DNA of 64,000 nt from Anaeromyxobacteraceae bacterium (GCA_035762305.1 DASTPH010000096.1:984-64983); one strand, 5' to 3'. Counted from the stretch's first letter, positions 20,322 to 44,893 are shown. Notes: generated from the letters alone by a model not told the origin. A program made the numbers and translations.

Positions 20322-20476
20322 CGGCCCTGTTTCGCCCGGGCCGGGGCGGGAGTCAAATCCCCCGAATGGCTGTGGGGTCCGCTCTCACCCTGTCACCATC
20401 CGTGCGCGCGGGTCGTAGGAACCCCACCGGCCTGCCGTGGTATGACCCGTGAAGTTTGTCCAGGAGGAGGGCTCAC

Positions 20477-23400: not shown

Positions 23401-25879
23401 CGACCCCTGCGCCGGCCGCTCCTGCCCGACCGGGACCTTCTGCCGCGAGGGCTACTGCGTGCAGTCCTGCGTCTTCGTCGCCTGCCCGACGGCCCAGCGC
23501 TGCGGCCAGGACGGCTTCTGCCAGGCCGATCCCTGCTCCGGCACGATCTGCGGCGCGGGCCAGGTGTGCCTGAACGGCACCTGCCAGACCAACCAATGCG
23601 CCTCGGTCACCTGCGGCGCGGGCCAGGTCTGCAATCCCGAGAACGGCACCTGCGTCCCCGATCCCTGCACCGGCGTGACCTGCCCGGTGGGTCAGTGCCT
23701 CTCCGGGCAGTGCTACTCCTCCAACCCCGGGGGCGGCCCGGCCCCGCCGCCGCCCATCGGCCCAGACGTGAAAGAGTCCTCCGGCTGCGGTTGCGGCTCG
23801 GCTCCGGCCGGCGAGCTGGGGCTGCTCCTCCTCGGCCTGCTCCTCCCCTGGCGTCGGCGCGCCGCCCGCCGGGCCGCGATCCGCCATCGGAGGTCGCTTC
23901 GCCACGCCGGGGCGGCGCTGGCCCTGTTCCTGGCCCTGACCGCCGCCGGCTGCTCCTCCAAGGAGGAGACGCCGAACCCCTGCACCAACCCCAACTGCAA
24001 CGGCGCCTGCGTCGACTTCCAGAACGACCCCGCCAACTGCGCGACCTGCGGCCACGCCTGCTCCGCCGGGCAGATCTGCGTGGAGGGGGCCTGCGGCCCC
24101 TCGTCGGCGGTGGCGCCGCAGATCACCGGCGTGAGCCCGGCCTCGGCCGCGAGCGGCACCACCCAGGCGGTGAGCCTCACCGGCCAGCGCTTCCAGGCCA
24201 ACGCCCAGGTGGTCGTGCTCGGGGCCGGGGCCCAGGCGGTGACCGCCTCGGTGGCCGACTCCGGCCACCTCTCCGCCACCCTCGACTTCACGGCGGTCTC
24301 TCCGGGCGCAGCCGAGATCCGCGTCGTGAACCCGGACCACGTCATCTCCAACGGCGCGGACTTCGACGTCACCCTGGCGGCGCCGGTGCTCACCGGCCTC
24401 GCCTGCCAGGGCGCTTCCTGCGTGCCGGCGAGCGGGACCTCGGCCACCACCGCCGTGGGCTCGGGCAGCCCGGTTGCGGTGACGCTGGTGCTCTCGGGGA
24501 CCGGCCTGGTCTCGTCGAGCCAGTGCCGGATCGCCTCGACGAACTTCCCCGAGATGGCCCTGCCCTCGGCCCTGTCCGGCGGGCAACTCCAGTGCACGCT
24601 CGACCTCCGCCTGACGGATCCCGGCGACTACCAGGTGACGGTGATGAACGGCGGCGTGGCCCGGTCCAACCCCCTGACCTTCACGGTCCTCACCAACACC
24701 CCGACGCTCACCTCCATCAGCCCCACCGCCGCCCGGGCCGGCGAGGTGGTGGCCCTCACCGTCACCGGGAGCGGCTTCGACCAGTCGAGCGAGGTCCTGG
24801 TCGACGGGTCCACCACCTTCAACGGCTCGGCCATCGTCACCACCTTCGTCTCGGGCACGCGCCTCGTCGCCCAACCAGTCGACCTGCGCGGCGCAGCCGC
24901 GGAAACGCACACCGTCACCGTGCGCAACGGCGCCACCGCCGGGACCGGCTCCGCCACCTTCACCGTCGACCCGGCCGCCCCGACGCTCTCCACCGTCTCC
25001 CCGACCTCGGCCAGGCAGGGCGCGGCCGTCGCCCTGCAGGTCACCGGCGCCAACTACGACGCCTCGACCCGGATCGAGGTCCAGGCGCCCGGCGCCGGGA
25101 CCTTCACGCCCATCGCCGCCACCGTGGTCGACTCGGCCACTCAGGCCCATGCGCCCTACGCCTTCGGCCAGGAGGGCTCCTGGCTGGTGCGCGTCACCAA
25201 CGCCGCCGGCGCCTCCGGCCCGCTCTCGGTGCGCGTCCTCTCCAACGTGGCCATCCTCTCCGGCGTGTCGCCGGCGAGCGCCCAGCAGGGGCAGACGGTG
25301 ACCCTGACCCTCACCGCCACCAACCTCGACGCCTCGCCGACCGTTCACCTCGCCTCCCCCTCGCTGGGCTGCCCCACCGCCCCGTGCAGCCTGGACCGCA
25401 CCCCTACCGTCTCGGGCAGCACGCTCACGGTAACGGGCCTGTCCCTGGCCGGCTGGGACGCCGGGACCTACGCGGTGACGGTGGTAAACCCGGGAGCGGC
25501 GGGCTCGAACGCGCTCGGGTTCACGGTCACGCCGGGCGCGCCGACGCTGGCCGCTCCGGCGAGCCCGGCCTGCGTGCTCCAGAGCGCGACGCCGACGACG
25601 GTGACGCTCACCGGGACCAACTTCGCCAAGCCCGACGCCGGCGGCAACGGCGGCTCGACCGTCCACGCCTCGTCGGCTGCCATCCCGGATTACGTGGTGC
25701 CGGGGGTCACCGTGACCAGCACCACCACCCTCACGGTGAGCTTCGACTCGTCGGCGGCGATCCCGGACAACTACACGCTCCAGGTCTGGAACCCCGGCCC
25801 TGCCATCCTCAAGTCGGGCACCATCCCCTTCAAGGTGGCTGCCAGCTACGCCGCGCCTCCCTTGAACGCCTGTCCGTAG
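20477..25879 (+). CDS. Giant secreted/cell-surface protein with several domain types
   Basis: Domain order: unknown N-terminal domain, MopE-like CxxxDxDCxG repeats, CxxGxxC repeats, internal MYXO-CTERM-like tag, lipobox, IPT/TIG-like repeats. RBS ggaggagg lies 6 nt before ATG 20477 (the track starts at TTG 20456). Signal peptide ALLAALALVLMAPTC. 5 x C(D/N)GxD(N/D)DC(N/D)GxVDD and 4 x CY(D/G)GPxxTxxVGxCxxGxxxC. SGCGCGSAPAGELGLLLLGLLLPWRRR at 23780-23860, then LFLALTAAGC. About 6-7 Ig-like repeats of the P(T/Q)(L/I)TxxSPxSA type. No stop codon in 5.4 kb. Confidence 0.8.
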   Translation: MRHPDRSRFRRVAPALGPALLAALALVLMAPTCQPTTPGVKTFAKGSIVIPMDACYQGDAAVTPTSCSARDVGNVIQAYGLVYQLIRNNIPVYWVIKQNKASLTDVDLTVQLSGGPPVGVYDWTNGATGGMPPSNANPIDYRGGPFVVDASDFAAANALFQTGNAGTGTPALKTLYSAVNLHVTQVAFQGYAAKTFAGGWNAGGTVAPKLALLNIPGGDGRYADHVLEGYLIRAALAPACVLNNPPCADNSAGTASPSGHGTIYDRLEAADFIPPTCTSTAQCQAVEPTSICDTGAGRCDWKATNFHRYSYRILWLPHWKGPNSCEGVLGNGYSCGTGFGGCGFAGSDTCSCVNNCTAQLTAAELDLVLRTIGAFQQAGNDVFGECAGLGTLEGVYNAGTATVDGSFGDGEATSRFQTSWGTGGSGGGMHISATAPTAACTAGQGSKQCVNGALYEPSYYPSPFLQLGDFPFTPVSGAITEYRPATGNGATGYVGGVATLIARMNGGTEVDYFTFLPGVADRGNVVYLGGHDYSGYQGTFQIAGTRLVLNTLFNLGAACVETLAPCSTGQLGVCGEGEMRCVGSVPTCVQKNQPSAEVCDGRDNDCNGAVDDGLVQSCYDGPAGTQGVGICHGGTRTCVETSPGNFGMSACLGQVLPAAEECNGLDDDCDGQVDDGLGSRSCYDGPPATQDVGTCRAGTQTCSSGSWGICNGEVLPLGYDVCEPVQDTNCNGAVGDGCGCYPQGSTRPCYGGPAGTENVGICRGGAQTCGASGIFGNCDGDVRPGARACNGLDNDCDGVVDTEQLCCDGGAPASSRTCYGGPAGTLGVGVCRGGTQICVGAAWSSGCDGQILPGPELCNAKDDDCNGVPDDGTPICPPGSSCVNGVCVPGSCGPEGPFCPGGYTCTGASCVIGNCGAGGPCTNGQVCQGGTCVDPCAAMTCGPGAYCSGGLCVGGGCYVTGCPAGQLCVQGTCQADPCAGRSCPTGTFCREGYCVQSCVFVACPTAQRCGQDGFCQADPCSGTICGAGQVCLNGTCQTNQCASVTCGAGQVCNPENGTCVPDPCTGVTCPVGQCLSGQCYSSNPGGGPAPPPPIGPDVKESSGCGCGSAPAGELGLLLLGLLLPWRRRAARRAAIRHRRSLRHAGAALALFLALTAAGCSSKEETPNPCTNPNCNGACVDFQNDPANCATCGHACSAGQICVEGACGPSSAVAPQITGVSPASAASGTTQAVSLTGQRFQANAQVVVLGAGAQAVTASVADSGHLSATLDFTAVSPGAAEIRVVNPDHVISNGADFDVTLAAPVLTGLACQGASCVPASGTSATTAVGSGSPVAVTLVLSGTGLVSSSQCRIASTNFPEMALPSALSGGQLQCTLDLRLTDPGDYQVTVMNGGVARSNPLTFTVLTNTPTLTSISPTAARAGEVVALTVTGSGFDQSSEVLVDGSTTFNGSAIVTTFVSGTRLVAQPVDLRGAAAETHTVTVRNGATAGTGSATFTVDPAAPTLSTVSPTSARQGAAVALQVTGANYDASTRIEVQAPGAGTFTPIAATVVDSATQAHAPYAFGQEGSWLVRVTNAAGASGPLSVRVLSNVAILSGVSPASAQQGQTVTLTLTATNLDASPTVHLASPSLGCPTAPCSLDRTPTVSGSTLTVTGLSLAGWDAGTYAVTVVNPGAAGSNALGFTVTPGAPTLAAPASPACVLQSATPTTVTLTGTNFAKPDAGGNGGSTVHASSAAIPDYVVPGVTVTSTTTLTVSFDSSAAIPDNYTLQVWNPGPAILKSGTIPFKVAASYAAPPLNACP

Positions 25880-33767: not shown

Positions 33768-35477
33768 CTAATACCTCCCCTCCAGGGCGGCCAGGCCGGT
33801 CGCGCCCCAGTCGACCGAGACGGTCGAGCCCTCGCCACCCAGAGAGGGAATGGCGAACCGCGACAGGAGCGACAGCCTGAGCCGCAGCCAGGCGTTCAGG
33901 TCGAAGAGGCCGGAGAATGCGACTCCCACAGTGCTGTCCGCCGAGAGCGGCGCCGGCCGGCTGTCCATGGTGAAGGCCAGGCGGGCCATGAGGCGCGTCC
34001 CGGTGCCCGGTGCGAAGTCACCCTGGGCCCACAGGCTGCGCCCCGAGAGCCAGCCGAACTCCTCGGCGTAGCCGGCGGAGAAACCCCCCGACTTCCAGGC
34101 CTTCGGGACCAGGATCTCCGGCCCCACCCAGGAGCGCTCGTTGCCCGAGACGGCGTCGCTGGCCCAGCCGCCGAAGAGGCGCAGGGACACCGGCCCGAGC
34201 GCCTCCAGGGTGGCCGCCCCCTCGAAGTGGTCGGTCCGGCCCGGGTAGACGGCGGGCGCGGCCGGCTCGCTGGCGGGGAGATCGAAGTGCCGGTAGGAGG
34301 CGAGCAGGCTGAAGCTCCCGGCGCGGCGCCAGCCGAGGTCGGCCGCCCCGTACTCCAGGGCCCCGGTTCTCGACCCGTAGCGAAGCTGGGCCGACAGGTC
34401 CAGCTCGCGCCACAGCCAGGCCTCTCCCATGAGCTCGGCGGCGAAGCCACCGCCGGCCGGGACGCCCTCCACCACCGCCAGCCGCCCCTGATGGCGCACG
34501 ACGACGTCGGGCGAGGCGCGCTCCACGGCCCAGTAGGCGCCTCCCGTGCTCTGGTCCAGCGTCGGCTCGGTGGTGGCCGGGAGCGGCAAGAAGCCGCCGA
34601 AGAGCCCCACCTCGAGCTTTTCCGAGGGGCGCCAGCCGACCTGCGCCCCGTCGAAGACCGAGCTCCCCACCGCGCCCCAGGTCATGACCCGCCCCGCGCT
34701 CAGGGGGACGGTCACGCCGGGGTCCCGGCGCGCCACCTGGAGCTCCCGGACCAGGAGGAAGGCCTTCTGCCCCGGCTGGAAGCGCTCGGTGTCCGATTCC
34801 GCCGCGCGGTAGACGGCCTGGGCGTCCACCCAGAGCCGGAACCCCGACCCCAGCTCGGCCCCCCGAATGGTGCCGTTCACGAAGAGCTGGCTCTGGGTAC
34901 TGGCGCTCACCGAGCCCCAGAGCTGCGCCCCCAGCGACACCGCGCTCCGGAGCACCCGGTCGGCCTCGGCGGGCCGGGCGGCGGACGGGGCCCGCTCGAC
35001 GAGCGTGAACGCCGCCGCCTTCACCGCGGCCAGGCGCCGGGCCTGCTCCTCGGCGGTGGGCTGGGGCGGCAGCGCCTTCCCGGCCGCGGCCGCCGCGCCC
35101 TCGGGGAGGCGGAAGGTGTCCCCGGCCCGCAGGCCCGCGCCGGCGCAGGTGGCGCTCCGCTCCGAGATTGCCTCCACCGTGCAGCGCCCGGCCGGGCGGC
35201 CGCGCCGCACCAGGTCCACCGTCGCCCCGGCGAGGATTCCGTCGCGGCTCCCGGCGTCGAGGTAGGCGAGGCTCGCGGCCACGAAGCGGACCGAGCCGGA
35301 CGCGGCGCGGGGCCGGACCGAAACCGGGCGCAGCGGCAGCGGCGAAGTGGAGGCGGCCGGTTGCTTGAGCGGGGTTGCCGCGGCCGGGGACCGCTTCGGC
35401 TTCCCGGCGGGCTTTTGGGCGGGCGCGGCAGCCGCGGCCAGGGCCATCAGGGCGGCGGCCATCGGGACCGCGCTCAT
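33768..35477 (-). CDS. Predicted outer-membrane beta-barrel protein (porin-like partner of the multihaem cytochromes)
   Basis: Signal peptide MSAVPMAAALMALAAAAAPAQ. About 170-aa N-terminal soluble region, then about 390 aa of alternating-hydrophobic strands. C-terminal residue is aromatic (LAALEGRY). ATG overlaps the upstream stop (ATGA). Confidence 0.65.
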   Translation of the reverse strand: MSAVPMAAALMALAAAAAPAQKPAGKPKRSPAAATPLKQPAASTSPLPLRPVSVRPRAASGSVRFVAASLAYLDAGSRDGILAGATVDLVRRGRPAGRCTVEAISERSATCAGAGLRAGDTFRLPEGAAAAAGKALPPQPTAEEQARRLAAVKAAAFTLVERAPSAARPAEADRVLRSAVSLGAQLWGSVSASTQSQLFVNGTIRGAELGSGFRLWVDAQAVYRAAESDTERFQPGQKAFLLVRELQVARRDPGVTVPLSAGRVMTWGAVGSSVFDGAQVGWRPSEKLEVGLFGGFLPLPATTEPTLDQSTGGAYWAVERASPDVVVRHQGRLAVVEGVPAGGGFAAELMGEAWLWRELDLSAQLRYGSRTGALEYGAADLGWRRAGSFSLLASYRHFDLPASEPAAPAVYPGRTDHFEGAATLEALGPVSLRLFGGWASDAVSGNERSWVGPEILVPKAWKSGGFSAGYAEEFGWLSGRSLWAQGDFAPGTGTRLMARLAFTMDSRPAPLSADSTVGVAFSGLFDLNAWLRLRLSLLSRFAIPSLGGEGSTVSVDWGATGLAALEGRY

Positions 35478-36301
35478 GGCCGCCTCCCGGGCAGGGACGG
35501 CAGGCCGGGCACGGTGAGCCGTCCCGGCCGCGACGGGCCAGGCTTGCCGCCCCCGCCGCCGCTGCAGTTGGTGTGGCAGTTGGTGCAGCGGGTGGTGGTG
35601 CAGGCCGGACCGCACGCCGGCGGGTTCGGGTAGGTGAAGTGGCAGTCGCGGCAGGCGATTCCGGCGTGCTGGCCGCTGGAGATGACGAAGCAGGCGTCGT
35701 GGCCCGGGAAGAACCCGTTCTTGAAGCTCCAGGCCTGGTGGCACTCCCGGCAGTCGTGGGGGAAGCCGGCCGCGGCGTGGTCGATGGAGCCCGGACGGGA
35801 GGTCCCGAGGTAGTCGGCCTGGTGGCAGTCGTAGCAGGTGGAGATGGGGCGCGACTGGCCGCGGTTCAGCCGATCCCCGTGGCACTCCTCGCAGGGGATG
35901 AAGGCGTGCCGGCCGGTGAGCGGGAAGCCGGTCCGCCGGTGGGCGTCGGGGTCGAAGCGGGTCTGCCAGGACTCCTCGCCGTGGCAGGCGGCGCAGCGGG
36001 GGCCGAGGGTACCGCGGTGGGGGTCGCGGTGGCAGGCGCCGCACTCGCGCCCCAGCGACCGCGAGGTGTCCGCCCCGTGGCATCCCTGGCAGCCGACCCG
36101 GCGGTGCTCTCCCCGGAGCGGGAAGCCGGTGCGCTCGTGGGCGAAGGCCACGTCCTGCCAGCTCTCGGTGGAGTGGCAGCGCTCGCAGCGGCTGTCGGCG
36201 CCGGCGTGGAGCGAGGAGGGCGGCGAGGGGCGCAGGTCGGGCTCGGCAGCTGCGGCCGCCAGCGCGGCGAGCAGGGCGGCGGCGAGGGCGAGTGCGCGCA
36301 C
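35474..36301 (-). CDS. Multihaem c-type cytochrome, 9 CXXCH
   Basis: GTG start, 2 nt after the upstream stop. Signal peptide VRALALAAALLAALAAAAAE. CXXCH motifs: CERCH, CQGCH, CGACH, CAACH, CEECH, CYDCH, CRECH, CRDCH, CTNCH. Cys/Gly/Pro-rich tail. Confidence 0.85.
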   Translation of the reverse strand: MRALALAAALLAALAAAAAEPDLRPSPPSSLHAGADSRCERCHSTESWQDVAFAHERTGFPLRGEHRRVGCQGCHGADTSRSLGRECGACHRDPHRGTLGPRCAACHGEESWQTRFDPDAHRRTGFPLTGRHAFIPCEECHGDRLNRGQSRPISTCYDCHQADYLGTSRPGSIDHAAAGFPHDCRECHQAWSFKNGFFPGHDACFVISSGQHAGIACRDCHFTYPNPPACGPACTTTRCTNCHTNCSGGGGGKPGPSRPGRLTVPGLPSLPGRRP

Positions 36302-36303
36302 GG

Positions 36304-38085
36304 TCAGAACCCCTTCAGGGCGCCCTTGTGGAAGTCGGCGTGGCACCCGGCGCAGGTCTTGGGCAGGCCGCGCCAGCGCCGGACCTTCACGCCGTCCACC
36401 CTGACCTCGGCGTGGCAGGCCTCGCACTTGGCCCTGGCGTGCCGGCCGGTGAGGGCGTAGTCGGTGAAGGGGGGCTCGTGGCGGAAGCGGGCGGCCTTCC
36501 AGTCCTCGGCGCCGTGGCAGCGGCCGCAGTCGGTCCGGTCGCGAGACGAGCGGGCGAACTGGGCGCCGTGCGGGTCGGCATGGCAGGCGGCGCAGGCGCT
36601 CTCCACGCCGCCGTAGCGGGCCGCGCCGGTCCGGGTCCGGGAGTGGCAGGCGGCGCAGGCGGCCGTGAGGTGTTTCCCCTCCAGCGGGAAGCGGGTCTGC
36701 CCGTGGTCGAAGCGGGTGCGGGCGAAGGTGGTCACCTCGTGACAGCCGGCGCAGCCCTGGGGCCCGCCCTTCTTCGAGAACTCGGGGCCGTGCGGGTCGG
36801 CGTGGCAGGTCTCGCAGCGGGAGAGATCGCCGGCCACGTGGTAGACCGCCAGCGAGAGCTTCACCGGCCGGCCGCGCCGCTGAAGCTCGGCCCGGACCGC
36901 AGCCGGGAAGCGCTCGCCCACCCGCGGATCGCTCTGGTGGCAGGCCGAGCAGGCGACGGTGCGGTGCGCCCCCTCGAGCGGGTAGCGGCTCCGGGCGTGC
37001 TCCTCCGGGCCGTAGCTCACCGGCTGGTACCCGGCCAGCGAGTGGCAGCGGTCGCAGCGGCCGGCGTCGGGCCCGGAGCGCAGCATCTGGCCGCCGTGGG
37101 CGTCGGCATGGCAGTCGGAGCAGGCGGCGAAACCGAGCCCCTTCCAGAGCGGGGCCTCGGCGCCGAACGGGCCGTGGCAGGCCTTGCACTCCACCTCTGC
37201 ATGCCGCCCCTCCAGCGGGTAGCGGGTCTTCTGGTGGAAGGCGCGATCCTCGCCGGCGCGGGCCACCAGCGTCCGCCAGTCGGCGGGGGTGTGGCAGCGC
37301 TGGCAGGCAGGCCCGAACCGGCCCTGGTGCGGGTCCTTCTGGTGGCAGTCGGCGCAGGCGGCGTGGGCCACCGGCCGGTAGCGCAGGAAGTCCTTGCGGC
37401 GCGGGGCGCCCGGGCCCATCTCGGCGCCGTCCTCCAGCCGCGGGTGGCACTTGTCGCAGGCCACCCTGGCGTGCTTGCCCTGGAGCGGGTAGGCGGTGCG
37501 GGCGTGGTCGAAGCCCGGGGCCGGCTTCCAGCCCTTCTCGTCGTGGCACGTGCCGCACTCCCGTCCCAGCTGGCCGCGGTGCTCGTCGGCGTGGCAGGCC
37601 GAGCATGCCGACGGCGCCCCCAGGAACGTGGCGCGGCCCGGCTTCTTCTCGAGCCAGGCCCGGATGCCCGGGTCCGCGACCAGGGCCCGATCGTGGCACT
37701 TCTCGCAGCCCACGGGCGCGTGCTTGCCGCGCAGCGGCGTCCCGGTCCGAGCGTGGTCGAAGCGCGCCCGCCCGCCCGGCCCCCAGTCCACCAGGGCGAA
37801 GTCCCGCCCCTGGTGCTCGTGGTGGCAGGTCCAGCAGTCGCGCTCGGCGCCCGCGAGCCGCCCGTGGAGCCCGCGTCCGGCGGCCAGCGAGCCACGGAGC
37901 TCCTCGTGGCAGGCGAGGCACGACTCCTGCGCCAGCCGCCGCCCCTCGGGGTGGCAGCGGGTGCAGCTCTTCATGCCCTCCAGGGAGGCGTGCGGCTTCG
38001 CCAGCTCGCCCGGGGAGAAGAGATCCACCGCCAGGGCGGCGGGGGCGAGGGCGATGAGGCAGGCGGCGATCAGGGCGCGGGCCAA
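36304..38085 (-). CDS. Multihaem c-type cytochrome, 20 CXXCH
   Basis: TTG start with GAGGA RBS, 13 nt after the upstream stop. Signal peptide ARALIAACLIALAPAALA. 20 CXXCH by manual count, arranged as repeated F(D/R)HxxTx(F/Y)PLxGxHxxxxCxxCH modules. Confidence 0.9.
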   Translation of the reverse strand: MARALIAACLIALAPAALAVDLFSPGELAKPHASLEGMKSCTRCHPEGRRLAQESCLACHEELRGSLAAGRGLHGRLAGAERDCWTCHHEHQGRDFALVDWGPGGRARFDHARTGTPLRGKHAPVGCEKCHDRALVADPGIRAWLEKKPGRATFLGAPSACSACHADEHRGQLGRECGTCHDEKGWKPAPGFDHARTAYPLQGKHARVACDKCHPRLEDGAEMGPGAPRRKDFLRYRPVAHAACADCHQKDPHQGRFGPACQRCHTPADWRTLVARAGEDRAFHQKTRYPLEGRHAEVECKACHGPFGAEAPLWKGLGFAACSDCHADAHGGQMLRSGPDAGRCDRCHSLAGYQPVSYGPEEHARSRYPLEGAHRTVACSACHQSDPRVGERFPAAVRAELQRRGRPVKLSLAVYHVAGDLSRCETCHADPHGPEFSKKGGPQGCAGCHEVTTFARTRFDHGQTRFPLEGKHLTAACAACHSRTRTGAARYGGVESACAACHADPHGAQFARSSRDRTDCGRCHGAEDWKAARFRHEPPFTDYALTGRHARAKCEACHAEVRVDGVKVRRWRGLPKTCAGCHADFHKGALKGF

Positions 38086-38098
38086 GGGTCCTCGAGGT

Positions 38099-40315
38099 TC
38101 AGTCGAGCAGGATGAGGCCGTAGCCGAGCCACAGCGAGACGCCGATGTGGGCGGCGATGGCCAGGACCAGGAAGACGGCCAGCGAGGCGTGGAAGATGCG
38201 CCAGCCGCGCATGAGCGACTTCAGCGAGCGCGAGAGCGCGATCTGCAGCCGGAGCTGCTCCAGCCGGTGCATGTCGGCGGCGAACTCGGCGAAGGCGGCC
38301 CGGCTGGGGAAGGCCCGGGCGGCGCGGCGCAGGGCGCGCCAGGAGGCGAGCGACTGCAGCGGCAGGTGCACCAGCGAGCCCACCATCGAGCGCGGCGGCA
38401 ACGGCGCCGTCACCGCCTCGAAGAGGCGGCGCAGCGGGGCCGGGTCCGTGGCCTGGGCCAGGAGCGGCTCGACCTCGGCGCGGGCTCGCACGAAGGACCC
38501 CTGCAGGTCCTCCACCTCCAGGGCCTTGCCGCCCGAGGACGGGATCAGCCCGTAGATGAAGCGCCCCACCACGCCGGTCGCCACCACCACCCCGAGGGCG
38601 GAAGCGGTGGCGGTGGCGAGCAGGTTCTTCGACTGGAAGGCGGCGTGGAAGGCGATGACCAGCGGGCTCATGAAGCCCACGAAGACGTGGAAGAGCAGCC
38701 ACAGCCGGATGTCCCCCAGGCCGGAGAGGAGCGGCACCCGCTTGCGCGCCGCGTAGAGGAAGTTCGAGAGCATGAAGGCGGTGGCGGCGATGCCCACCCC
38801 GTGCCCGAAGGGGCCGGCCGACTTCAGCGAGGCGTGCAGGGAGAGGCGCAGCCGCTCCCGCCACGGGGTCAGGTAGTAATCCCAGCCGCGCCAGGCCAGG
38901 AACGCCAGCAGCGCCGCCCCCAGCGCCGCGTAGAGGACCGACAGGCGCCGCTCGCGCGCCCGCTGGGCTCGCTCCCGCGCCTCGGCGTGGCCAGCGCTGG
39001 AACGCGCCCCGCGGGCCTCGCCGAAGTAGCGCCGCATGGAGACGCCGGCCTTCTGGAGCAGCTCGGCCGGGGCCTCGCCGCCCACGCTCACCAGCACGAA
39101 GTCGTTGTCGAGGCGGAGCGGCCGGCCGGCCATCTCCAGATCCACCTCGTGGGCTTCGATGCCGCGCACCTGGGAGCTGGGGAGCAGCCGCAGCCTCCCG
39201 GCCTGGCCCAGGGCGGCGGCGCGCTGACGGTTCGGGGCCCGGCAGGAGGGGTCGGGCTTGCGGTAGGAGAGGACCACCTGGGCGTCGGTCTCCTCGGCGA
39301 GCTGGCAGGCGGCCTCCACCCCCGAGTCGCCGCCGCCCACCACCAGCACCCGGGTGCCCCGGTACTGCTGCGGCTCGTCGAGGTCGTAGACCACCTTGGC
39401 CCGGTCCTCGCCCGGAACCCCCAGCTTGCGGGGAGTGCCGCGCCGCCCCACCGCCAGCACCACCTGCCTCGCCGGCACCGGCCCTTGCGCGGTGAGGACC
39501 GTGAAGTCGCCCTCCTGCCCCTCGACGCCCGTGACCCGCATCCCCTGCTCCACCGCCAGGCCCGCCTTGTCCACCATGCGCCGGAAGGCGGCGGTGAGCT
39601 CCTCCTTGGAGATGCGCCGCTTCCCGAAGCGCCCGTAGAAGGGAAGCGTCACCGTCTCGGTCATCACCACCTTGCCGCGGGGGTAGTGGGCCACCGCGCC
39701 GCCGAGGACGTCCTGCTCCAGCAGGCGGAAGCCGATGCCGCGGGCCCGCGCCCCCAGGGCCGTGGCCAGCCCGGCCGGGCCGGCGCCCACGATGGCCACC
39801 TCGGCCTGTCCCGGCCGGACCGGCCCGCGGCGCTCCGCCAGGTGCTCCGCCACCTCCAGCCCCTGGCGGAGGGCGTTCTTGATGAGCCCCATGCCGCCCA
39901 ACTCGCCCACCACGAAGACGCCGGGCCGAGACGACTCGAAGACCTCGGAGAGCTCGGGCAGCTCCAGGCCGCGCCGGGCGGTACCGAACACCAGCTGGAT
40001 GGCGCCCACCGGGCACTCGGCGGCGCAGCGCCCGTGGCCGATGCAGTTCTCGCCGTGCACCAGGGTGGCGGTCCCGTGGACCATCCCCAGGATGTCGCCC
40101 TCCGGGCAGACCTTCACGCAGGAGAGGCTACCGATGCAGACGTCCGGGTCGATGACCGGGTGGAGCGAGCGGGGGAGGTTCCGCTCCTCCCCGGCCCGCC
40201 CGAGGGCCTCGGAGGCGGCGGCGGCGCGGCGCGCCCGGTGCAGGGCGTAGATCCCCGCCATGACGACCGCGGCGCCGACCGCCACCGCCGGGAACACGAT
40301 CTGCGAGAGATCCAC
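38099..40315 (-). CDS. Membrane-anchored fusion protein with FeS, flavin and putative haem-b domains
   Basis: Domain order: N-terminal TM helix, two ferredoxin-like motifs, FAD/NAD(P)-dependent oxidoreductase, C-terminal multi-TM domain with twin H-x13-H helices. N-terminal TM followed by HRARR. CIGSLSCVKVCP and CIGHGRCAAECP. Two dinucleotide folds VAIVGAGPAGLA and VLVVGGGDSGVE. C-terminal TM helices LLFHVFVGFMSPLVIAFHAAF and IFHASLAVFLVLAIAAHIG. Confidence 0.8.
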   Translation of the reverse strand: MDLSQIVFPAVAVGAAVVMAGIYALHRARRAAAASEALGRAGEERNLPRSLHPVIDPDVCIGSLSCVKVCPEGDILGMVHGTATLVHGENCIGHGRCAAECPVGAIQLVFGTARRGLELPELSEVFESSRPGVFVVGELGGMGLIKNALRQGLEVAEHLAERRGPVRPGQAEVAIVGAGPAGLATALGARARGIGFRLLEQDVLGGAVAHYPRGKVVMTETVTLPFYGRFGKRRISKEELTAAFRRMVDKAGLAVEQGMRVTGVEGQEGDFTVLTAQGPVPARQVVLAVGRRGTPRKLGVPGEDRAKVVYDLDEPQQYRGTRVLVVGGGDSGVEAACQLAEETDAQVVLSYRKPDPSCRAPNRQRAAALGQAGRLRLLPSSQVRGIEAHEVDLEMAGRPLRLDNDFVLVSVGGEAPAELLQKAGVSMRRYFGEARGARSSAGHAEARERAQRARERRLSVLYAALGAALLAFLAWRGWDYYLTPWRERLRLSLHASLKSAGPFGHGVGIAATAFMLSNFLYAARKRVPLLSGLGDIRLWLLFHVFVGFMSPLVIAFHAAFQSKNLLATATASALGVVVATGVVGRFIYGLIPSSGGKALEVEDLQGSFVRARAEVEPLLAQATDPAPLRRLFEAVTAPLPPRSMVGSLVHLPLQSLASWRALRRAARAFPSRAAFAEFAADMHRLEQLRLQIALSRSLKSLMRGWRIFHASLAVFLVLAIAAHIGVSLWLGYGLILLD

Positions 40316-40487
40316 CTGTCGACCACCCGAGGTGGGATTGTCCGGCCGCGGGATGTGGTAGGGCTTTGTCCCCGGTCAATCGGTGGGGAGCCCCGTAGGG
40401 GGCGTCACAGCGGCAGCCAGTTCCCGTGATTCCCCGGCGGCACATGCCGCCGCTGTGAGTCGAGGTCCGGGGCCTGCGGCGCCTCGA

Positions 40488-40512
40488 GCGGGGGGAGAGA
40501 CTCTCCCCCCGC
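40488..40512. repeat. 25-bp perfect palindrome downstream of the ABC ATPase gene and upstream of the cytochrome operon
   Basis: gcggggggagag-a-ctctccccccgc, 12 bp per arm around a single central base. Confidence 0.7.
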
Positions 40513-40551
40513 ACCCCCCATCTCGAGCGTCACTCCAAGTGGCAGGCGGAA

Positions 40552-41232
40552 TCAAAGCTCCTGGATCCCGCCGTCCTGCATCCGCATGCGGCGTCCGGCG
40601 CGGCCGGCCAGCTCGGAGTTGTGGGTCACCATGACGAAGGTCGTGCCCCGCTCCCGGTTCATCCTCATGAAGAGCTCCATCACCTCGGCCTCGGTCTGCT
40701 CGTCGAGGTCGCCGGTGGGCTCGTCGGCCAGCACCAGCGACGGCGCGTTCATGAAGGCGCGGGCGATGGCCACGCGCCGCTGCTGGCCGCCGGAGAGCTG
40801 CGACGGGTAGGCGCCGGCCCGGTCGCCGAGCCCGACCAGCCGGAGCAGCTCCACGGCCCGGGTCTCGGCCCCGTTGAGCGGACCGGCCCGGGGGCGGAGC
40901 GTCACCGGCAGGAGCACGTTCTCCCTGGCCGTCAGGACCGGGAGCAGGCTGGCGAACTGGAAGACGAACCCCACGTGATCGCGCCGGAAGGCGGTGAGCC
41001 GATCGCCGTCCAGGGCGTAGAGGTCGGCGCCGTCCACCAGGACCCGGCCCGACGAGGGCCTGGCCATGCCGCCCAGGATCGAGAGCAGCGTGGTCTTGCC
41101 GGAGCCGGAGTGGCCGACGATGGAGACGAAGTCGCCGCGCTCGACGGTGAACGAGACGTCCTTCACCGCCTCGGGGCGGTCCCCGCCGGCCGCGAAGCGC
41201 TTCTCCACTCGCTCCACCACCAGGTGCGGCAC
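40552..41232 (-). CDS. ABC transporter ATP-binding protein (MacB/LolD-type)
   Basis: Walker A GHSGSGKTTLLS, signature LSGGQQRRVAIARA, Walker B LVLADEPTGDLD. Confidence 0.9.
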   Translation of the reverse strand: MPHLVVERVEKRFAAGGDRPEAVKDVSFTVERGDFVSIVGHSGSGKTTLLSILGGMARPSSGRVLVDGADLYALDGDRLTAFRRDHVGFVFQFASLLPVLTARENVLLPVTLRPRAGPLNGAETRAVELLRLVGLGDRAGAYPSQLSGGQQRRVAIARAFMNAPSLVLADEPTGDLDEQTEAEVMELFMRMNRERGTTFVMVTHNSELAGRAGRRMRMQDGGIQEL

Positions 41233-41233
41233 C

Positions 41234-42430
41234 CTACTCCTCCTTCAGCACCATGAACGGCTCGATGCGCCCGGCGCGGCGGATGGGCAGGAGCGCGCCC
41301 AGCACGCACACGCCGGTGCCGACGAGCAGGCCCACCGCCGCGATGGTGGCGCGCTCTCCTCCGCCGAGGTCGGCGGTGACGCTCCGGAGGATGGCGAATC
41401 CCCGCGCCGGCACGAGCGAGAGGGCGGTCCCGAAGAGGACCCCCAGGGCGCTGCCGAGCCCCCCCACCATCACCACCTCGGTGAGGAAGAGCCGGATCAC
41501 GTGGGACTCGGTGGCCCCGATGGCCCGCAGGATCCCCACCTCGCGGGCCCGCTCGTTGGCGACCCCGGAGAAGACCGCCCAGGCCAGGCAGGCGGCCATG
41601 AGCGAGGCCACGGCGATGAAGGCCGCGAAGACCCGGCGGATGTCGCCCAGGGCGCCGAGGACGCTCTTGCCCACGTCCCGCCGCGCCACCGCGTCCACCT
41701 CGACGATGGAGTCGTCGATGCGGCCGGCCACCACCTGGGGATCGACGCCCGGCTCGACCCTGGCGAAGATGACCGAGACCTGGCCCTCGGCGACCCGGGG
41801 CTTGCCCTTGCGGATGAGGTCCTGGACGTTGCTCCGGTCCACGAACACGGCGGTGTCGAGCCCGGTGCCGGTCTTCTCGAGAACCCCCACCATCCTGAAG
41901 ACGTTGCCGAACAGGACCGCGTCCACGTCGGTGAGGCCCAGGCCGATGTTGAGCGCCGACTCGCTCCCCACCAGGGCCTCCCCGTGGCCCAGGTTCCGAT
42001 GGAGCGCCCGGCCGAGCCAGGGCTTCACCACGAAGTCGGTTTCCTGGTCGAACGCGACCACCATGGTGTCTGGCACGTCGCAGCAGGCTCCGCCCAGGGT
42101 GACCAGATAGGTCTGGGCGGTGACCCGCTCGATCCCGGGCACGGCCCGGACCCGTTCGACCAGGCCCCCCTCCATGTAGAAGCCCTTGACCCGGTGGTCG
42201 ATGAGCACGTCCTCGGCCGAGCCCCGGGAGCCGGTGGGCACCACCAGGACGTCGGCGCCGAGCCGGTCGGCGGTCTTGCGGATGCTCGACTCGACCCGGC
42301 GGACGAAGGACAGCCCGAACACCAACGACGAGACCAGGAGGCCGATGGCCGCGACCAGGATGGCGGCCCGCGCCGGACGTCGCGCCAGGTTCTTGAGGGC
42401 GTGCCTGGAGAGGCCGAAGGCCTTGGGCAT
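41234..42430 (-). CDS. ABC transporter permease (FtsX/MacB-type with large periplasmic domain)
   Basis: TM1, about 220-aa periplasmic domain, then 3 TM helices. FtsX-type REVGILRAIGAT. CC pair (GGACCDVPD) in the periplasmic domain. Confidence 0.85.
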   Translation of the reverse strand: MPKAFGLSRHALKNLARRPARAAILVAAIGLLVSSLVFGLSFVRRVESSIRKTADRLGADVLVVPTGSRGSAEDVLIDHRVKGFYMEGGLVERVRAVPGIERVTAQTYLVTLGGACCDVPDTMVVAFDQETDFVVKPWLGRALHRNLGHGEALVGSESALNIGLGLTDVDAVLFGNVFRMVGVLEKTGTGLDTAVFVDRSNVQDLIRKGKPRVAEGQVSVIFARVEPGVDPQVVAGRIDDSIVEVDAVARRDVGKSVLGALGDIRRVFAAFIAVASLMAACLAWAVFSGVANERAREVGILRAIGATESHVIRLFLTEVVMVGGLGSALGVLFGTALSLVPARGFAILRSVTADLGGGERATIAAVGLLVGTGVCVLGALLPIRRAGRIEPFMVLKEE

Positions 42431-42497
42431 GGGGGCGCTCGCGGGGGGCTCGCTCCACCCGGCCGGAGCCGGGCGGAACGAGCCCGCGCCAGGGAAG

Positions 42498-43646
42498 CTA
42501 CTTGCCGAAGTTGGCGGCGAGGCCGCAGAGGATGGCGTTCTTGTCGCCCTTCCCCATGTCCTTGTGGCAGCCGAAGCACACCGAGGCGGTCTTGCCCACC
42601 AGCTTCTTGGCCCCGACGTCGTAGAGCGCCAGGGTGCCGTCGGTGATCTTCTTGTCGGGCGTGGGCTTGCCCTCGGGGTCGCACCCCTGGGTGTCGGCGG
42701 TGCGCAGCGTCAGCAGCGCGTACTTCCCGTCCGGGGTGGGCTGCACGTCGTGGTTCTCGCCCAGGGCCGGCTTGGTCATCTTCTCGTCCACCATCTTCAG
42801 CGTCTTGGCGTCGATGACCCACATCCGGTCGGCTGCCGACTGGAAGATGAGCTTGTCGTCCCGGCTGAAGTACTGCCGGAAGGTGATGGTCTTCCCCGGC
42901 TCACCGGCCAGGGTGTTCTCGGCCAGCTTCTTGAACTTGCCCTTCTCGAGCGCCGGGAGGTCGAGCATGACGAACGCCTGCTTGCCGTTCATGTTGCCGT
43001 CCTCGCCCTTCAGGCTCAGCGCCACGACGAACTTCTTCAGATCATTGGAGTTGGTGCCGTGCAGGAACTGGTAGGAGCCGGGCTTGAAGCCGAGGTCGCT
43101 GATGAACATCCGCCTCTCGTGCTTCATGGTCTTCTTGTCGAAGACGTCGATGTACCCCTCGGTCCCCATGAACACCGGCATGAAGGCGTTCTTGCTCTGG
43201 CCCGAGGCGCAGTAGACCGGGCCGGTCTTGGCGGGGGACCTGGCATCGGGCGTCAGCGCCACGTCCTTCACCACCTCGCCGGTCTTCAAGTTGGTCTTGC
43301 CCACGTGCATCTTGCCCTCCTTGTCGAGGGCGTAGGTGGACCAGAAGAGGGTGTTCGCGTCGGTGGCGTCGAGGCGCGCGTCGTGGGTCTTGTGGCTCTC
43401 GGTGGTGCCGATGGCCACCATCTCGAGGTTGTTGACGGTGACGGGCTGGTCGGCGTTGGACGGGTCGACGGTCACCTGCGCCTTGGAGAAGTGGCCGCCG
43501 TGGCCGGCCACGTAGACGGTGGCGGCGTAGGTGCCCGACTTGGCGGGCGCGGCCGGAGGCGCCTTGGCCGAGGCCACCGGCGCGACGAGGTAGGCGAGAA
43601 GGGCGAGCGCGACTGCTGGGGCGAAAACGGCGAGTGTCTTCTTCAT
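42498..43646 (-). CDS. Secreted Lys-rich protein, probable beta-propeller, with a single C-terminal CXXCH haem-c motif
   Basis: RBS GGGAG 8 nt before ATG 43646. Signal peptide MKKTLAVFAPAVALALLAYLVAPVASA. His clusters AGHGGHF, ESHKTHD, FLHGTN, ENHDV. C-terminal CFGCHKDMGKGD. Confidence 0.7.
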   Translation of the reverse strand: MKKTLAVFAPAVALALLAYLVAPVASAKAPPAAPAKSGTYAATVYVAGHGGHFSKAQVTVDPSNADQPVTVNNLEMVAIGTTESHKTHDARLDATDANTLFWSTYALDKEGKMHVGKTNLKTGEVVKDVALTPDARSPAKTGPVYCASGQSKNAFMPVFMGTEGYIDVFDKKTMKHERRMFISDLGFKPGSYQFLHGTNSNDLKKFVVALSLKGEDGNMNGKQAFVMLDLPALEKGKFKKLAENTLAGEPGKTITFRQYFSRDDKLIFQSAADRMWVIDAKTLKMVDEKMTKPALGENHDVQPTPDGKYALLTLRTADTQGCDPEGKPTPDKKITDGTLALYDVGAKKLVGKTASVCFGCHKDMGKGDKNAILCGLAANFGK

Positions 43647-43765
43647 CACTGAGCTCCCTGAGTGGGGTGTGTGGCGTACTTCACTTTTGGTGAGTGGTGT
43701 GCGGTACCGGCCTTCGTCCCCCTCCCCTGGTCCAGCGCTTCCGCCTCCTTTCCGCGGCTCGTCCG

Positions 43766-44236
43766 CTATCCGGCGATCCTGACCGAGGTGACCTTCTCGC
43801 CCGCCCTCTCGAAGGCCAGGCGGAGGGTGAACTCGTATCCCTGGCCGACCTCCCCGGGGAGGCCGAACACCATCACGTGCAGCCCGCCCGGCCTGAGCTC
43901 CACGGCGCCCCGGGCCGGGATCCGGACCCGCTGCTGCTTCACCATCTTGCCGTCGACCACCCCGTGCAGCTCGGCCACCGCCCCGGGGATGCCCACCGTG
44001 GCGCCGAGCAGGGAGTCGTCGCCGCTCCCCGCGTTCTCGATCCGCATGAAGATCGAGCAGGTCCGGAGCAGGACCGGCGAGAGACGCGCCTCCTGCCCGG
44101 CGATGGCGATGCTCGGCGACCCGGAGCAGGCGGCCGCGCCCAGGGCCAGGAGCGCCAGGCGCCGCGGGGCGGACTTCCAGCCCGCCCGGCCGGATTCCCG
44201 GCGGGCCTGCCTCGACACGCCGGCGCCATCGGTCAT
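43766..44236 (-). CDS. Copper chaperone PCu(A)C (DUF461) lipoprotein
   Basis: Lipobox LALGAAAC. IENAGSGDDSLLGATV...AELHGVV...MVKQQRV..IPARGAVELRPGGLHVMVFGL matches the PCuAC H/M copper-site pattern. An alternative start at ATG 44275 is possible. Confidence 0.8.
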   Translation of the reverse strand: MTDGAGVSRQARRESGRAGWKSAPRRLALLALGAAACSGSPSIAIAGQEARLSPVLLRTCSIFMRIENAGSGDDSLLGATVGIPGAVAELHGVVDGKMVKQQRVRIPARGAVELRPGGLHVMVFGLPGEVGQGYEFTLRLAFERAGEKVTSVRIAG

Positions 44237-44645
44237 CGCGACCACGAACCGCTTTCCCGGGACCCTGGCTCCCACGAGCGGCCCCCGCCGCCGTGTGCCG
44301 GCCCTGCGCCATCGCGTCGACCGCGCGAACGGCTGCGATTCATGCGTTTCAGCTACGCGAAACGCGGTGGGAGCGTCAACGCGAAGAAGCCTGATAGGGC
44401 GAACAACGAAGCTGATATGGGCCGGAAGGAGCGTTTTCGTCCCTCGGGACGCGTACCTCGCCCCGCCGGCTCGCTCGCCTCATCCAGGCGCCGGGGCGCG
44501 GCGCGGAGCCGCGGCGTGCGGCTCGGCCCGGAGTTGGCGCGCTGCACCGCGGCGAGCGGCGCCCGCCTCCACGAGCGGCCTCACCTCACGGCGCCGCCAG
44601 GATCTCGACGGCGCAGGAGCTCTCCACCGGCAGCGAAGGCCCGGG

Positions 44646-44684
44646 CAGAAAGAAGCCCCGCCTCCAGGACGATGGAAGCGGGGC
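44646..44684 (-). terminator. Rho-independent terminator after tRNA-Glu
   Basis: On the minus strand a 12-bp GC-rich stem (one G-U pair) with a 6-nt loop, followed by UUCUUUCU. Confidence 0.7.
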
Positions 44685-44687
44685 AGG

Positions 44688-44762
44688 TGGTGACCCCTAC
44701 GGGACTTGAACCCATGCTTTCGGCGTGAGAGGCCGACGTCCTAACCACTAGACTAAGGGGCC
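44688..44762 (-). tRNA. tRNA-Glu (anticodon CUC)
   Basis: Reverse complement GGCCCCTTAGTCTAGTGGTTAGGACGTCGGCCTCTCACGCCGAAAGCATGGGTTCAAGTCCCGTAGGGGTCACCA folds as a cloverleaf. Anticodon loop is CT-CTC-AC. CCA is encoded. Confidence 0.9.
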
Positions 44763-44819: not shown

Positions 44820-44893
44820 TGGCTGGGGGACTAGGATTCGAACCTAGATAGCCGGATCCAGAGCCCGGCGTCCTGCCGTTAGACGATCCCCCA
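44820..44893 (-). tRNA. tRNA-Gln (anticodon CUG)
   Basis: Reverse complement TGGGGGATCGTCTAACGGCAGGACGCCGGGCTCTGGATCCGGCTATCTAGGTTCGAATCCTAGTCCCCCAGCCA. Anticodon loop is CT-CTG-GA. CCA is encoded. Confidence 0.9.

Follow-up and report, generated by a model that had tools for sequence, protein, structure and literature searches.

We describe a four-gene module of an Anaeromyxobacteraceae bacterium, located in a stretch of 64,000 nucleotides (nt) that was analyzed as a whole (GCA_035762305.1, DASTPH010000096.1:984-64983; hereafter the window). The module encodes a PCuAC-family copper chaperone, an exported protein of an orphan family (hereafter X), and the permease and the ATPase of an ATP-binding cassette (ABC) transporter of the MacB type. 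In our preferred reading, to which we assign a probability of about 45%, X would be a Sec-exported haem-c propeller enzyme with a copper pocket supplied by the chaperone, the MacB-type transporter would load the metal, and the substrate would probably be an inorganic sulfur compound. The design resembles known systems of cuproenzyme assembly, while X itself, its putative covalent haem, and the MacB-type partner are new in that role. We found no description of the X family, or of this combination of genes, in the literature that was searched.

Organization and conservation of the module

The four genes are called on the minus strand, all in the same direction, which agrees with an earlier note on this DNA that was made from the sequence alone. 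The gene of the chaperone, a probable lipoprotein of 169 amino acids (aa), spans positions 43766-44275 and starts with a GTG at 44275; an alternative ATG, the start taken in the earlier note, lies at 44236. It is followed by the genes of X (382 aa; 42498-43646), of the permease (398 aa; 41234-42430), and of the ATPase (226 aa; 40552-41232). The successive spacers measure 119, 67, and 1 nt, the ATPase gene starting 1 nt past the stop of the permease.

A scan for X in one genome per species gave 88 relatives, and we kept 80 loci. The majority (69) are labelled Nitrospirota, largely Thermodesulfovibrionia, including 'Ca. Sulfobium' and the metagenome-assembled genome (MAG) of a manganese oxidiser. 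Five belong to Anaeromyxobacter or Anaeromyxobacteraceae, and the rest to Desulfobulbia, Caldimicrobium, a betaproteobacterium, and a Chloroflexota MAG. In 70 of the 80 genomic loci, the genes of X, of the permease, and of the ATPase stand side by side in one orientation. The reverse search, in which the permease was compared with metagenomes, found X directly upstream in all 51 loci having at least 1 kb of upstream DNA. The cluster is thus conserved, a point that the earlier note had left to be checked. Nine exception loci carry a stand-alone X. In seven of these cases the genome has an ABC-linked X as well, and the stand-alone gene is a second copy. Such second copies fit an assembly factor working in trans.

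Stand-alone paralogues of X were seen in the Nitrospirota loci L030, L036, L037, L038, L040, L041, L042, and L044, mostly at ~8001-9130, and eight of the nine stand-alone copies have a Met at position 49. In L030, L036, L038, and L044, one side of the stand-alone gene is occupied by the gene of a small tetrahaem cytochrome, with no chaperone or ABC genes. The other side of these copies has genes that, judged by their N-terminal sequences, resemble those of alanine dehydrogenase and ATP synthase.

Protein X

A database search identified 867 homologues of X. The best 120 have identities of 66-93%, and those that carry a name are all called "hypothetical protein". Among 1.84 billion cluster representatives, which were searched exhaustively, only 116 clusters at 50% identity were found. 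The sequences of Myxococcota and Nitrospirota are 66-72% identical. As judged from these searches, the family is small, self-contained, and tightly conserved. X has no match in Pfam or NCBIfam, and a search of Pfam with 24 members of the family, at E-values up to 10, gave no recurring family. Similarly, phmmer found no match among the PDB sequences, where profiles built from three alignments gave only insignificant matches to propellers. The earlier note had considered that X might turn out to be a known non-metalloprotein; it matches no known family.

X starts with a Sec-type signal, made of MKK, a hydrophobic stretch, and ASA followed by KA, and has no twin-arginine motif. This signal and the lipoboxes found in distant members argue that the whole family is extracytoplasmic. 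The protein has five Cys and nine His in 382 residues, and calling it His-rich, as the earlier note did, was not warranted. What stands out is the conservation of these residues, since six of the nine His are invariant, two more are semi-conserved, and seven His positions are conserved in the clade of the window. A single CXXCH, the putative attachment motif of a c-type haem, is found at residues 357-361 (codons of C357-F-G-C360-H361 at 42564-42578, minus strand), so that the earlier description of a secreted protein of 382 aa with one C-terminal motif holds. The composition of X leads one to expect ~0.0015 such motifs by chance, yet this one is invariant among homologues, and we conclude that it is not fortuitous. 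All 71 genomic homologues keep it, and so do 24 diverse ones with identities as low as 28%. Some distant members of the family have a second CXXCH.

In the same 71 genomic homologues, H52, H88, D89, H114, C146, K171, H196, F256, R257, H299, D300, and R315 are invariant, as are C357, C360, H361, and C374. At position 49, 31 sequences have a His and 38 a Met. Cu(I) ligands commonly alternate between His and Met, and we therefore count the alternation at this position as support for copper. Down to 28% identity, among the 24 diverse homologues, the invariant residues are G50, D89, K171, D202, F256, H299, Y309, R315, D336, G351, and C357/C360/H361, with H52, H88, H196, C146, and C374 being nearly so.

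The AlphaFold2 model of X is all-beta (pLDDT 86.5, pTM 0.84), with 24 beta-strands. Foldseek retrieved only beta-propellers from the PDB (probability 1.0, TM-score ~0.4-0.5), in line with the propeller-like protein suspected earlier. The matches are generic (WD40, TolB, YncE, NirN, hydrazine-synthase-beta) and include no informative nearest neighbour. Given the 24 predicted strands, X probably has six four-stranded blades. The conserved His, Cys, and Asp map to the starts of the innermost predicted strands, and the CXXCH is in the loop that leads to the C-terminal strand, which closes the propeller. Natural tandem fusions have their circular permutation exactly there, which indicates that this last strand completes the first blade. 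From the strand starts, the place of the CXXCH loop, and the joining of the C-terminal strand to the N-terminal blade, we infer that the haem motif and the conserved pocket are on the same face of the propeller.

Composite architectures were seen among P0121 (947 aa), P0122 (765 aa), P0129 (831 aa), P0127 (731 aa; L092 7745-9940), and P0125 (785 aa). Some members are tandem arrays of repeated, circularly permuted halves, in which blades 4-6 with the CXXCH are followed by blades 1-3, and some have fibronectin-III or immunoglobulin-like domains. In one member, which lacks both C146 and C374, the protein is joined to a caspase domain (Peptidase_C14).

The transporter linked to X

The permease matches the FtsX domain (PF02687, 62.3 bits) and the periplasmic core of MacB (PF12704, MacB_PCD, 40.8 bits), the latter corresponding to a large periplasmic domain, and the ATPase, which is LolD/MacB-like, matches PF00005 (E 3.3e-35, 122 bits). 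With an FtsX C-terminal transmembrane (TM) domain, a MacB periplasmic core, and a cognate ABC ATPase, the pair is a type VII ABC transporter. Transporters of this type work on periplasmic partners, and not in import or export across the inner membrane. Like MacB, LolCDE, and FtsEX, the module has the FtsX C-terminal domain, the MacB periplasmic core, and a LolD-like ATPase, and lacks a solute-binding protein.

The pair is none of these systems, however. The permease is far below the NCBIfam equivalog cutoffs of LolC/E (25.8 vs 362), MacB (28.6 vs 966), and FtsX, and the best NCBIfam match of the ATPase, LolD, reaches 227 bits for a cutoff of 307.75. Neither a MacA/HlyD adaptor gene nor a TolC gene was found in the window or in the tables of related loci. 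We thus rejected LolCDE, MacAB-TolC, and FtsEX as identities of the transporter, and we count the absence of adaptor and TolC genes as support for a role of the ABC pair in assembly.

The earlier note had singled out an FtsX/MacB permease with a periplasmic pair of Cys, next to its ATPase, and this description is borne out by the domain matches. The vicinal Cys116-Cys117 (codons at 42080-42085, minus strand) fall inside the match to the periplasmic domain. They are present in 61 of 61 aligned permeases, in 80 of 80 permeases from metagenomes, and even in X-linked permeases at 29% identity (L085, L089). We know of no characterised member of the MacB, LolCDE, or FtsEX families for which an invariant Cys-Cys and a strict pairing with an X-like protein have been described.

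Copper chaperones beside X

The identification of PCuAC in the earlier note is upheld by a match to PF04314 (E 3.6e-19, 69.1 bits vs a cutoff of 29.4). That it is a lipoprotein is less firmly established, the lipobox (LGAAAC) being only approximate. Its putative ligands, H104-X6-M111-X21-H133-X-M135, are conserved in 30 of 30 module-linked sequences. They agree with the Cu(I) ligand motif of PCuAC, H(M)X10MX21HXM, save that the first spacer here has 6 residues instead of 10.

The chaperone varies in the 68 ABC-linked loci. PCuAC is encoded directly upstream in 27 of them, NosL is present in 17, and both are present in 2. The NosL neighbours (PF05573, E 4e-32) usually come with an FtrD-like/DUF2318 lipoprotein, convergent to the operon of the module, and the genes of FtrD-like/DUF2318 and NosL accompany the module in ~20 loci. 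The Caldimicrobium locus has a NosL-like gene inside the operon, after the permease gene on one side and next to that of the ATPase on the other. Among the distant branches (27-35% identity), L087 has X followed by a fusion of a Cox11-like domain with a cytochrome c and by an SCO1 with an intact CHHVCP (CXXXCP), and in L085 and L088, X lies beside a set of CusF-like, thioredoxin, FtsX, FtsX, and ABC genes. Hence, PCuAC, NosL, SCO1, and a weakly matched CusF-like family swap at the same position. This exchange of unrelated Cu(I) chaperones is our strongest argument that X, or the pair of X and ABC transporter, handles copper.

Two further observations concern the loci of the NosL type. The convergent pair of NosL and FtrD-like/DUF2318, the latter a Cys-rich lipoprotein, was seen in L008, L025, L028, L033, L034, L039, L050, L052, L061, and L062, on the opposite strand at ~+3.1 to +3.6 kb from the start of X. 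In such loci, a protein of 89 aa often replaces PCuAC directly upstream of X, and it has no match in Pfam, NCBIfam, or the PDB.

The same neighbours may also be read as a module for the trafficking or homeostasis of copper or another metal. X would then be a periplasmic, haem-dependent protein that binds copper or cycles it between Cu(II) and Cu(I), and that exchanges the metal, in either direction, with PCuAC/NosL and with the MacB-type transporter. A comparable arrangement is the FTR1-P19-DUF2318-ABC-thioredoxin system (Campylobacter jejuni 1649-1656; FtrABCD), where a periplasmic copper protein is served by DUF2318/FtrD, an ABC transporter, and sometimes a thioredoxin. The permeases of this C. 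jejuni system are probably of the FtsX type. An FtrABCD-like accessory set appears beside X in the ~20 loci having FtrD-like/DUF2318 and NosL and in L085 and L088, where the thioredoxin, the two FtsX, and the ABC genes resemble C. jejuni 1651-1656. In that species, loss of the DUF2318, ABC, or thioredoxin genes phenocopies the loss of the copper protein P19 (PMC6083913). We also count this system, with NosZ/NosDFYL and TcDH, as a precedent for our preferred reading, as it pairs a periplasmic copper protein with its own ABC transporter. The chaperone genes are also the commonest neighbours of X. However, neither FTR1 nor P19 turned up in the locus tables that we examined or among the families that recur beside X, and trafficking leaves the neighbouring sulfur enzymes, described below, unaccounted for. 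Nor does it sit well with the 66-72% identity between Myxococcota and Nitrospirota, the enzyme-like invariant Asp, Arg, Lys, and Tyr, or the second copies of X that stand alone without a transporter. We consider it quite unlikely.

Sulfur enzymes beside X

The sulfur context of the X family was missing from the earlier note. In ~10 loci, a pentahaem cytochrome gene directly follows the ATPase gene. It has an in-frame TGA within GH(R/A)IPDG-U-PS(H/P)N and matches the NCBIfam family ExtKL (E 2.6e-140), which corresponds to the selenoenzyme MccSep, recently identified as the polysulfide reductase of sulfur respiration (PMC13510729). The MccSep genes beside the module are in L001 (13538-14752), L003 (13440-14642), L019 (11683-12891), and L069 (4819-6099 and 6279-7589), and further ones are in L014, L031, L035, L049, and L075. 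In L069, MccSep precedes the module instead of following it. The gene is mis-annotated in these MAGs, as gene callers split it at the TGA into open reading frames (ORFs) of ~297 and 99 aa. In the distant branches, a secreted rhodanese flanks X in five of nine loci examined (L085, L086, L088, L090, L092). A YeeE-type sulfur transporter or TusA, which also flank X in distant branches, is found in L085, L087, L088, L001, and L003. One distant locus has the haem-maturation genes CcsA/ResB directly upstream of X, and downstream an ExtH-like rhodanese and an ExtI-like porin. The pentahaem cytochromes of L085 and L088 were considered as homologues of MccSep and rejected, their identity being only ~22%. 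Overall, the neighbours of the family point to sulfur and away from N-oxide chemistry.

This context suggests another explanation, in which X is a haem-only sulfur enzyme, like TsdA, SoxAX, and MccSep. Its haem c would have a His and a Cys as ligands, namely H361 and either C374 or C146, and a Cys would serve in the active site. It would make or break S-S bonds in polysulfide or thiosulfate, and the chaperones and the ABC transporter would have another purpose, such as protecting the cell from copper in a sulfidic periplasm or handling sulfur intermediates. The invariant C146 and C374 would be on the face of the haem site, secreted rhodaneses, YeeE/TusA, and MccSep recur beside X, and one locus has X followed by the ExtH-like rhodanese and ExtI-like porin genes. 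Furthermore, the His/Cys haem of MccSep catalyses polysulfide reduction (PMC13510729). MccSep/ExtKL, TsdA, and SoxAX share with X a periplasmic c-type haem (putative in X), a Cys near the haem, and rhodanese and porin (ExtH/ExtI) neighbours. They are all-alpha cytochromes with one or several haems, whereas X is a predicted beta-propeller with a single motif and has no sequence similarity to them. A haem-only enzyme would leave unaccounted for at least three unrelated families of copper chaperones beside X, the ring of five invariant His with the His/Met position, and the strict coupling of a Cys-Cys ABC transporter to X. We thus regard it as unlikely.

A candidate mechanism

In the mechanism that we propose for a copper-dependent X, the protein would be the catalytic subunit of a redox metalloenzyme of the periplasm not described before. 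It would be exported unfolded by Sec, would receive one covalent c-type haem at C357/C360, with H361 as an axial ligand, and would fold into a probably six-bladed beta-propeller. At its central entrance, His 52, 88, 114, 196, and 299, the His/Met at position 49, Cys 146 and 374, and Asp 89 and 300 would bind copper. The metal would be delivered by the PCuAC lipoprotein encoded upstream, and elsewhere by NosL, SCO1, or a CusF-like protein. The MacB-type ABC transporter would work in the periplasm, without pumping a solute across the membrane, and the ATP-driven motion of its Cys-Cys periplasmic domain may load or repair the metal (possibly metal-sulfur) centre of X, as NosDFY-NosL do for NosZ. 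The haem of X would link the copper site to soluble or multihaem cytochromes. The substrate would be small and inorganic, with a sulfur species as the likeliest candidate (polysulfide, thiosulfate, sulfide, or a thiocyanate-like compound). The gene identities, the class of fold, the pattern of conservation, and the synteny are shown by the data, and the binding of haem and of copper, the part of the transporter in assembly, and the substrate are inferred. A more specific version of this mechanism, in which the hub of the six blades holds a site of copper, or of copper and sulfur, beneath the covalent haem c and the type VII ABC transporter assembles this centre through its Cys-Cys pair, seems doubtful to us.

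Comparison with NosZ and TcDH

The NosZ/NosDFY-NosL system resembles the module, as we read it, in having a periplasmic propeller enzyme with a central ring of His, a lipoprotein Cu(I) chaperone, and a dedicated ABC transporter. NosDFY is thought to act in the periplasm, as we propose for the X-linked transporter. NosL, the chaperone of CuZ (PMC6530538), itself occurs in 19 of the X loci, without PCuAC in 17 and together with it in 2. The differences are nevertheless large. X has no similarity in sequence or motifs to NosZ and no CuA cupredoxin, and it differs by its 382 aa, its probably six blades, its haem c motif, and its export by Sec. Its transporter is of the MacB/FtsX type, with four TM helices and a Cys-Cys periplasmic domain, whereas that of nos has the ABC-2 permease NosY and NosD. 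We found no NosD, NosR, or NosX in the module. The earlier proposal of a Nos-like, non-homologous maturation module is partly supported and remains the best reading. Its conservation and its link to copper hold, its role in maturation is putative, and the tie to a multihaem operon, discussed below, is not conserved.

We rejected X as a canonical NosZ of clade I or II. The CuA motif CX2FCX3HXEM was absent in a regular-expression search, the CuZ motifs DXHH, PHG, GPLH, and EPH are all lacking, and NosZ has seven blades. At E-values up to 10, there was no match to cupredoxin or NosZ families of Pfam in the 24 members of the X family, and no NosZ chain among the sequence and profile matches of X in the PDB.

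The lactonase-type NosZ of clade III (L-NosZ), reportedly described by He et al. in 2025 (Nature 646:152), is closer to X in its taxonomic distribution, since papers that cite it place it in Nitrospirota, Myxococcota, and Desulfobacterota. Clade III nosZ is devoid of the canonical nos accessories and has genes of transporters and cytochromes nearby (PMC13477213). The criteria that citing papers give for L-NosZ are 400-900 aa, a cupredoxin domain, a seven-bladed propeller of the lactonase type, and the motifs CX2FCX3HXEM, D/GXHH, PHG, GPLH, and EPH (bioRxiv 10.64898/2026.07.10.737647; PMC11033732). Although its taxa and its pattern of His suggested an L-NosZ, X has 382 aa, lacks these motifs, and gives no lactonase or cupredoxin signal in Pfam. 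It was thus rejected as an L-NosZ.

One could still consider X as a further non-homologous reductase of N2O, or of another N-oxide, with a haem c in place of CuA as the entry of electrons. The module follows the logic of nos, with a propeller, a Cu chaperone (NosL in the 19 loci), and an ABC transporter, and seven His positions are conserved in the clade of the window. The taxa also overlap with the carriers of clade III nosZ, a gene that does without the canonical accessories too and is near transporter and cytochrome genes (PMC13477213). Against this, all the motifs of NosZ and L-NosZ are absent, there is no signal of a cupredoxin or of a lactonase-type propeller, only four to five His are conserved family-wide, and the neighbours point to sulfur, with no nir, nor, or nos genes among the recurrent families and locus tables examined. 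We find such a reductase very improbable.

Thiocyanate dehydrogenase (TcDH), a trinuclear-copper enzyme, resembles the proposed X enzyme in being a propeller without a CuA domain in a sulfur-linked context, and a c-type cytochrome accepts its electrons. Four genes of ABC subunits follow that of TcDH, and copCD and the gene of a small cytochrome c are close by (PMC5328954). Unlike X, it is exported by Tat, has seven blades and ~470-550 aa, and carries no covalent haem. Two permeases and two ATPases make up its ABC transporter, whereas the X module has one of each. TcDH is not among the top 50 Foldseek matches of X.

Several observations weigh against a copper-loaded haem enzyme acting on sulfur. 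Family-wide, only four non-haem His are invariant or nearly so; H114 is kept for the most part, and variation occurs at positions 49 and 85. As judged from these alignments, the distant branches fall short of a seven-His site of the CuZ type. We detected no similarity of X to any known copper site. The chains of TcDH recur among the profile matches of X, at residues 254-319, and those of hydrazine synthase beta are also matched, but neither result is significant (E 0.04-0.5 and 0.006-0.6, respectively). The number of blades and the geometry of the residues were read from predicted secondary structure alone, and the conserved His, Cys, Asp, and Arg would equally fit the distal pocket of a haem-only enzyme. 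Concerning the copper neighbours, 22 of the 68 ABC-linked loci have no chaperone gene in the available flank, many of these contigs ending short, the Cox11-like domain of L087 has no obvious CFCF motif, and the CusF-like Pfam matches are weak. Finally, the rhodanese, YeeE/TusA, and MccSep genes are not present in this window, and the rhodanese and YeeE neighbours are found in distant branches. The link to sulfur is thus a property of the family that this locus does not itself demonstrate.

Genomic context in the window

Downstream of the ATPase gene, a gap of 236 nt (40316-40551), in which no terminator-like site was found, leads to a multihaem operon on the same strand (33768-40315, minus). 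According to Pfam matches and counts of CXXCH motifs, the part at 35474-40315 (minus) encodes a membrane Fe-S flavoprotein of 738 aa and cytochromes of 20 haems (593 aa) and 9 haems (275 aa). The flavoprotein has an N-terminal TM segment, two [4Fe-4S] clusters, a part resembling FAD/NAD(P) disulfide reductases of the YpdA/thioredoxin-reductase kind, and a C-terminal multi-TM domain. The operon also encodes a protein of 569 aa without family match that ends in an aromatic residue and is possibly an outer-membrane barrel. From its sequence, the operon looks like an electron conduit of the porin-cytochrome type with an unusual inner-membrane flavoprotein. The earlier note had raised a possible connection with the module. 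Its place directly downstream on the same strand is confirmed, but the association is not conserved, since no homologues of the operon were found beside X in the 80 related loci. We thus set aside a functional coupling or co-transcription of the two, and the link is specific to this genome.

Upstream of the chaperone gene are tRNA-Glu(CTC) and tRNA-Gln(CTG), at 44688-44762 and 44820-44893 (minus strand). A terminator-like hairpin at 44655-44684 lies after them and before the PCuAC gene, which suggests that the four genes form their own transcription unit. The tRNA genes are common borders of genomic islands, and the codon usage of the module is native despite their proximity. A local dip in G+C content at X (65.5%, for ~72% in the window) had raised the suspicion of a recent horizontal transfer. 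This was rejected because the G+C content at third codon positions (0.971 in X, 0.96-0.97 across the four genes) equals that of the neighbouring genes, so that X appears native to the genome. The dip is a matter of amino-acid composition, X being rich in Lys, Asp, and Thr.

In Nitrospirota and Anaeromyxobacter, genes for a B12-binding radical-SAM (S-adenosylmethionine) protein, a family-2 glycosyltransferase, a radical-SAM protein, and an amino-oxidase lie just upstream of the module (L001 2588-8823, L003 1495-8716, L004 1-2656; 14 loci by clustering). These genes presumably resemble the hopanoid side-chain genes hpnE, hpnH, hpnI, and hpnJ. Elsewhere in the window, an ORF of 1807 aa (20456-25879, plus strand) combines an IPT/TIG domain with a putative copper-binding motif of the MopE type (PF11617). 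Its product would be another secreted protein with a possible relation to copper, unlinked to the module. The remaining genes of the window are housekeeping genes.

Implications

If our reading is true, the module would be the third non-homologous design to combine a propeller cuproenzyme, a copper chaperone, and a dedicated ABC transporter, after NosZ and TcDH. Here, a haem c would replace CuA and a MacB-type transporter would replace NosDFY. An orphan transporter of the MacB family would gain a biochemical job. If X indeed has a haem-copper centre that the transporter assembles, this would be the first type VII ABC transporter to act as a machine for the assembly of a metallocentre, and X would represent a new class of enzymes in the anaerobic cycling of sulfur (or of N-oxides) in Nitrospirota, Myxococcota, and Desulfobacterota. 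The compactness of the four-gene module makes these ideas directly testable by co-expression. The homologues of X are mostly found in subsurface Nitrospirota, in Anaeromyxobacter, and in Desulfobacterota that disproportionate or reduce sulfur. Some steps of sulfur disproportionation and of the turnover of S0 and polysulfide are incompletely known, and a family of ~870 homologues that is currently labelled as hypothetical would be flagged as a candidate for a missing enzyme.

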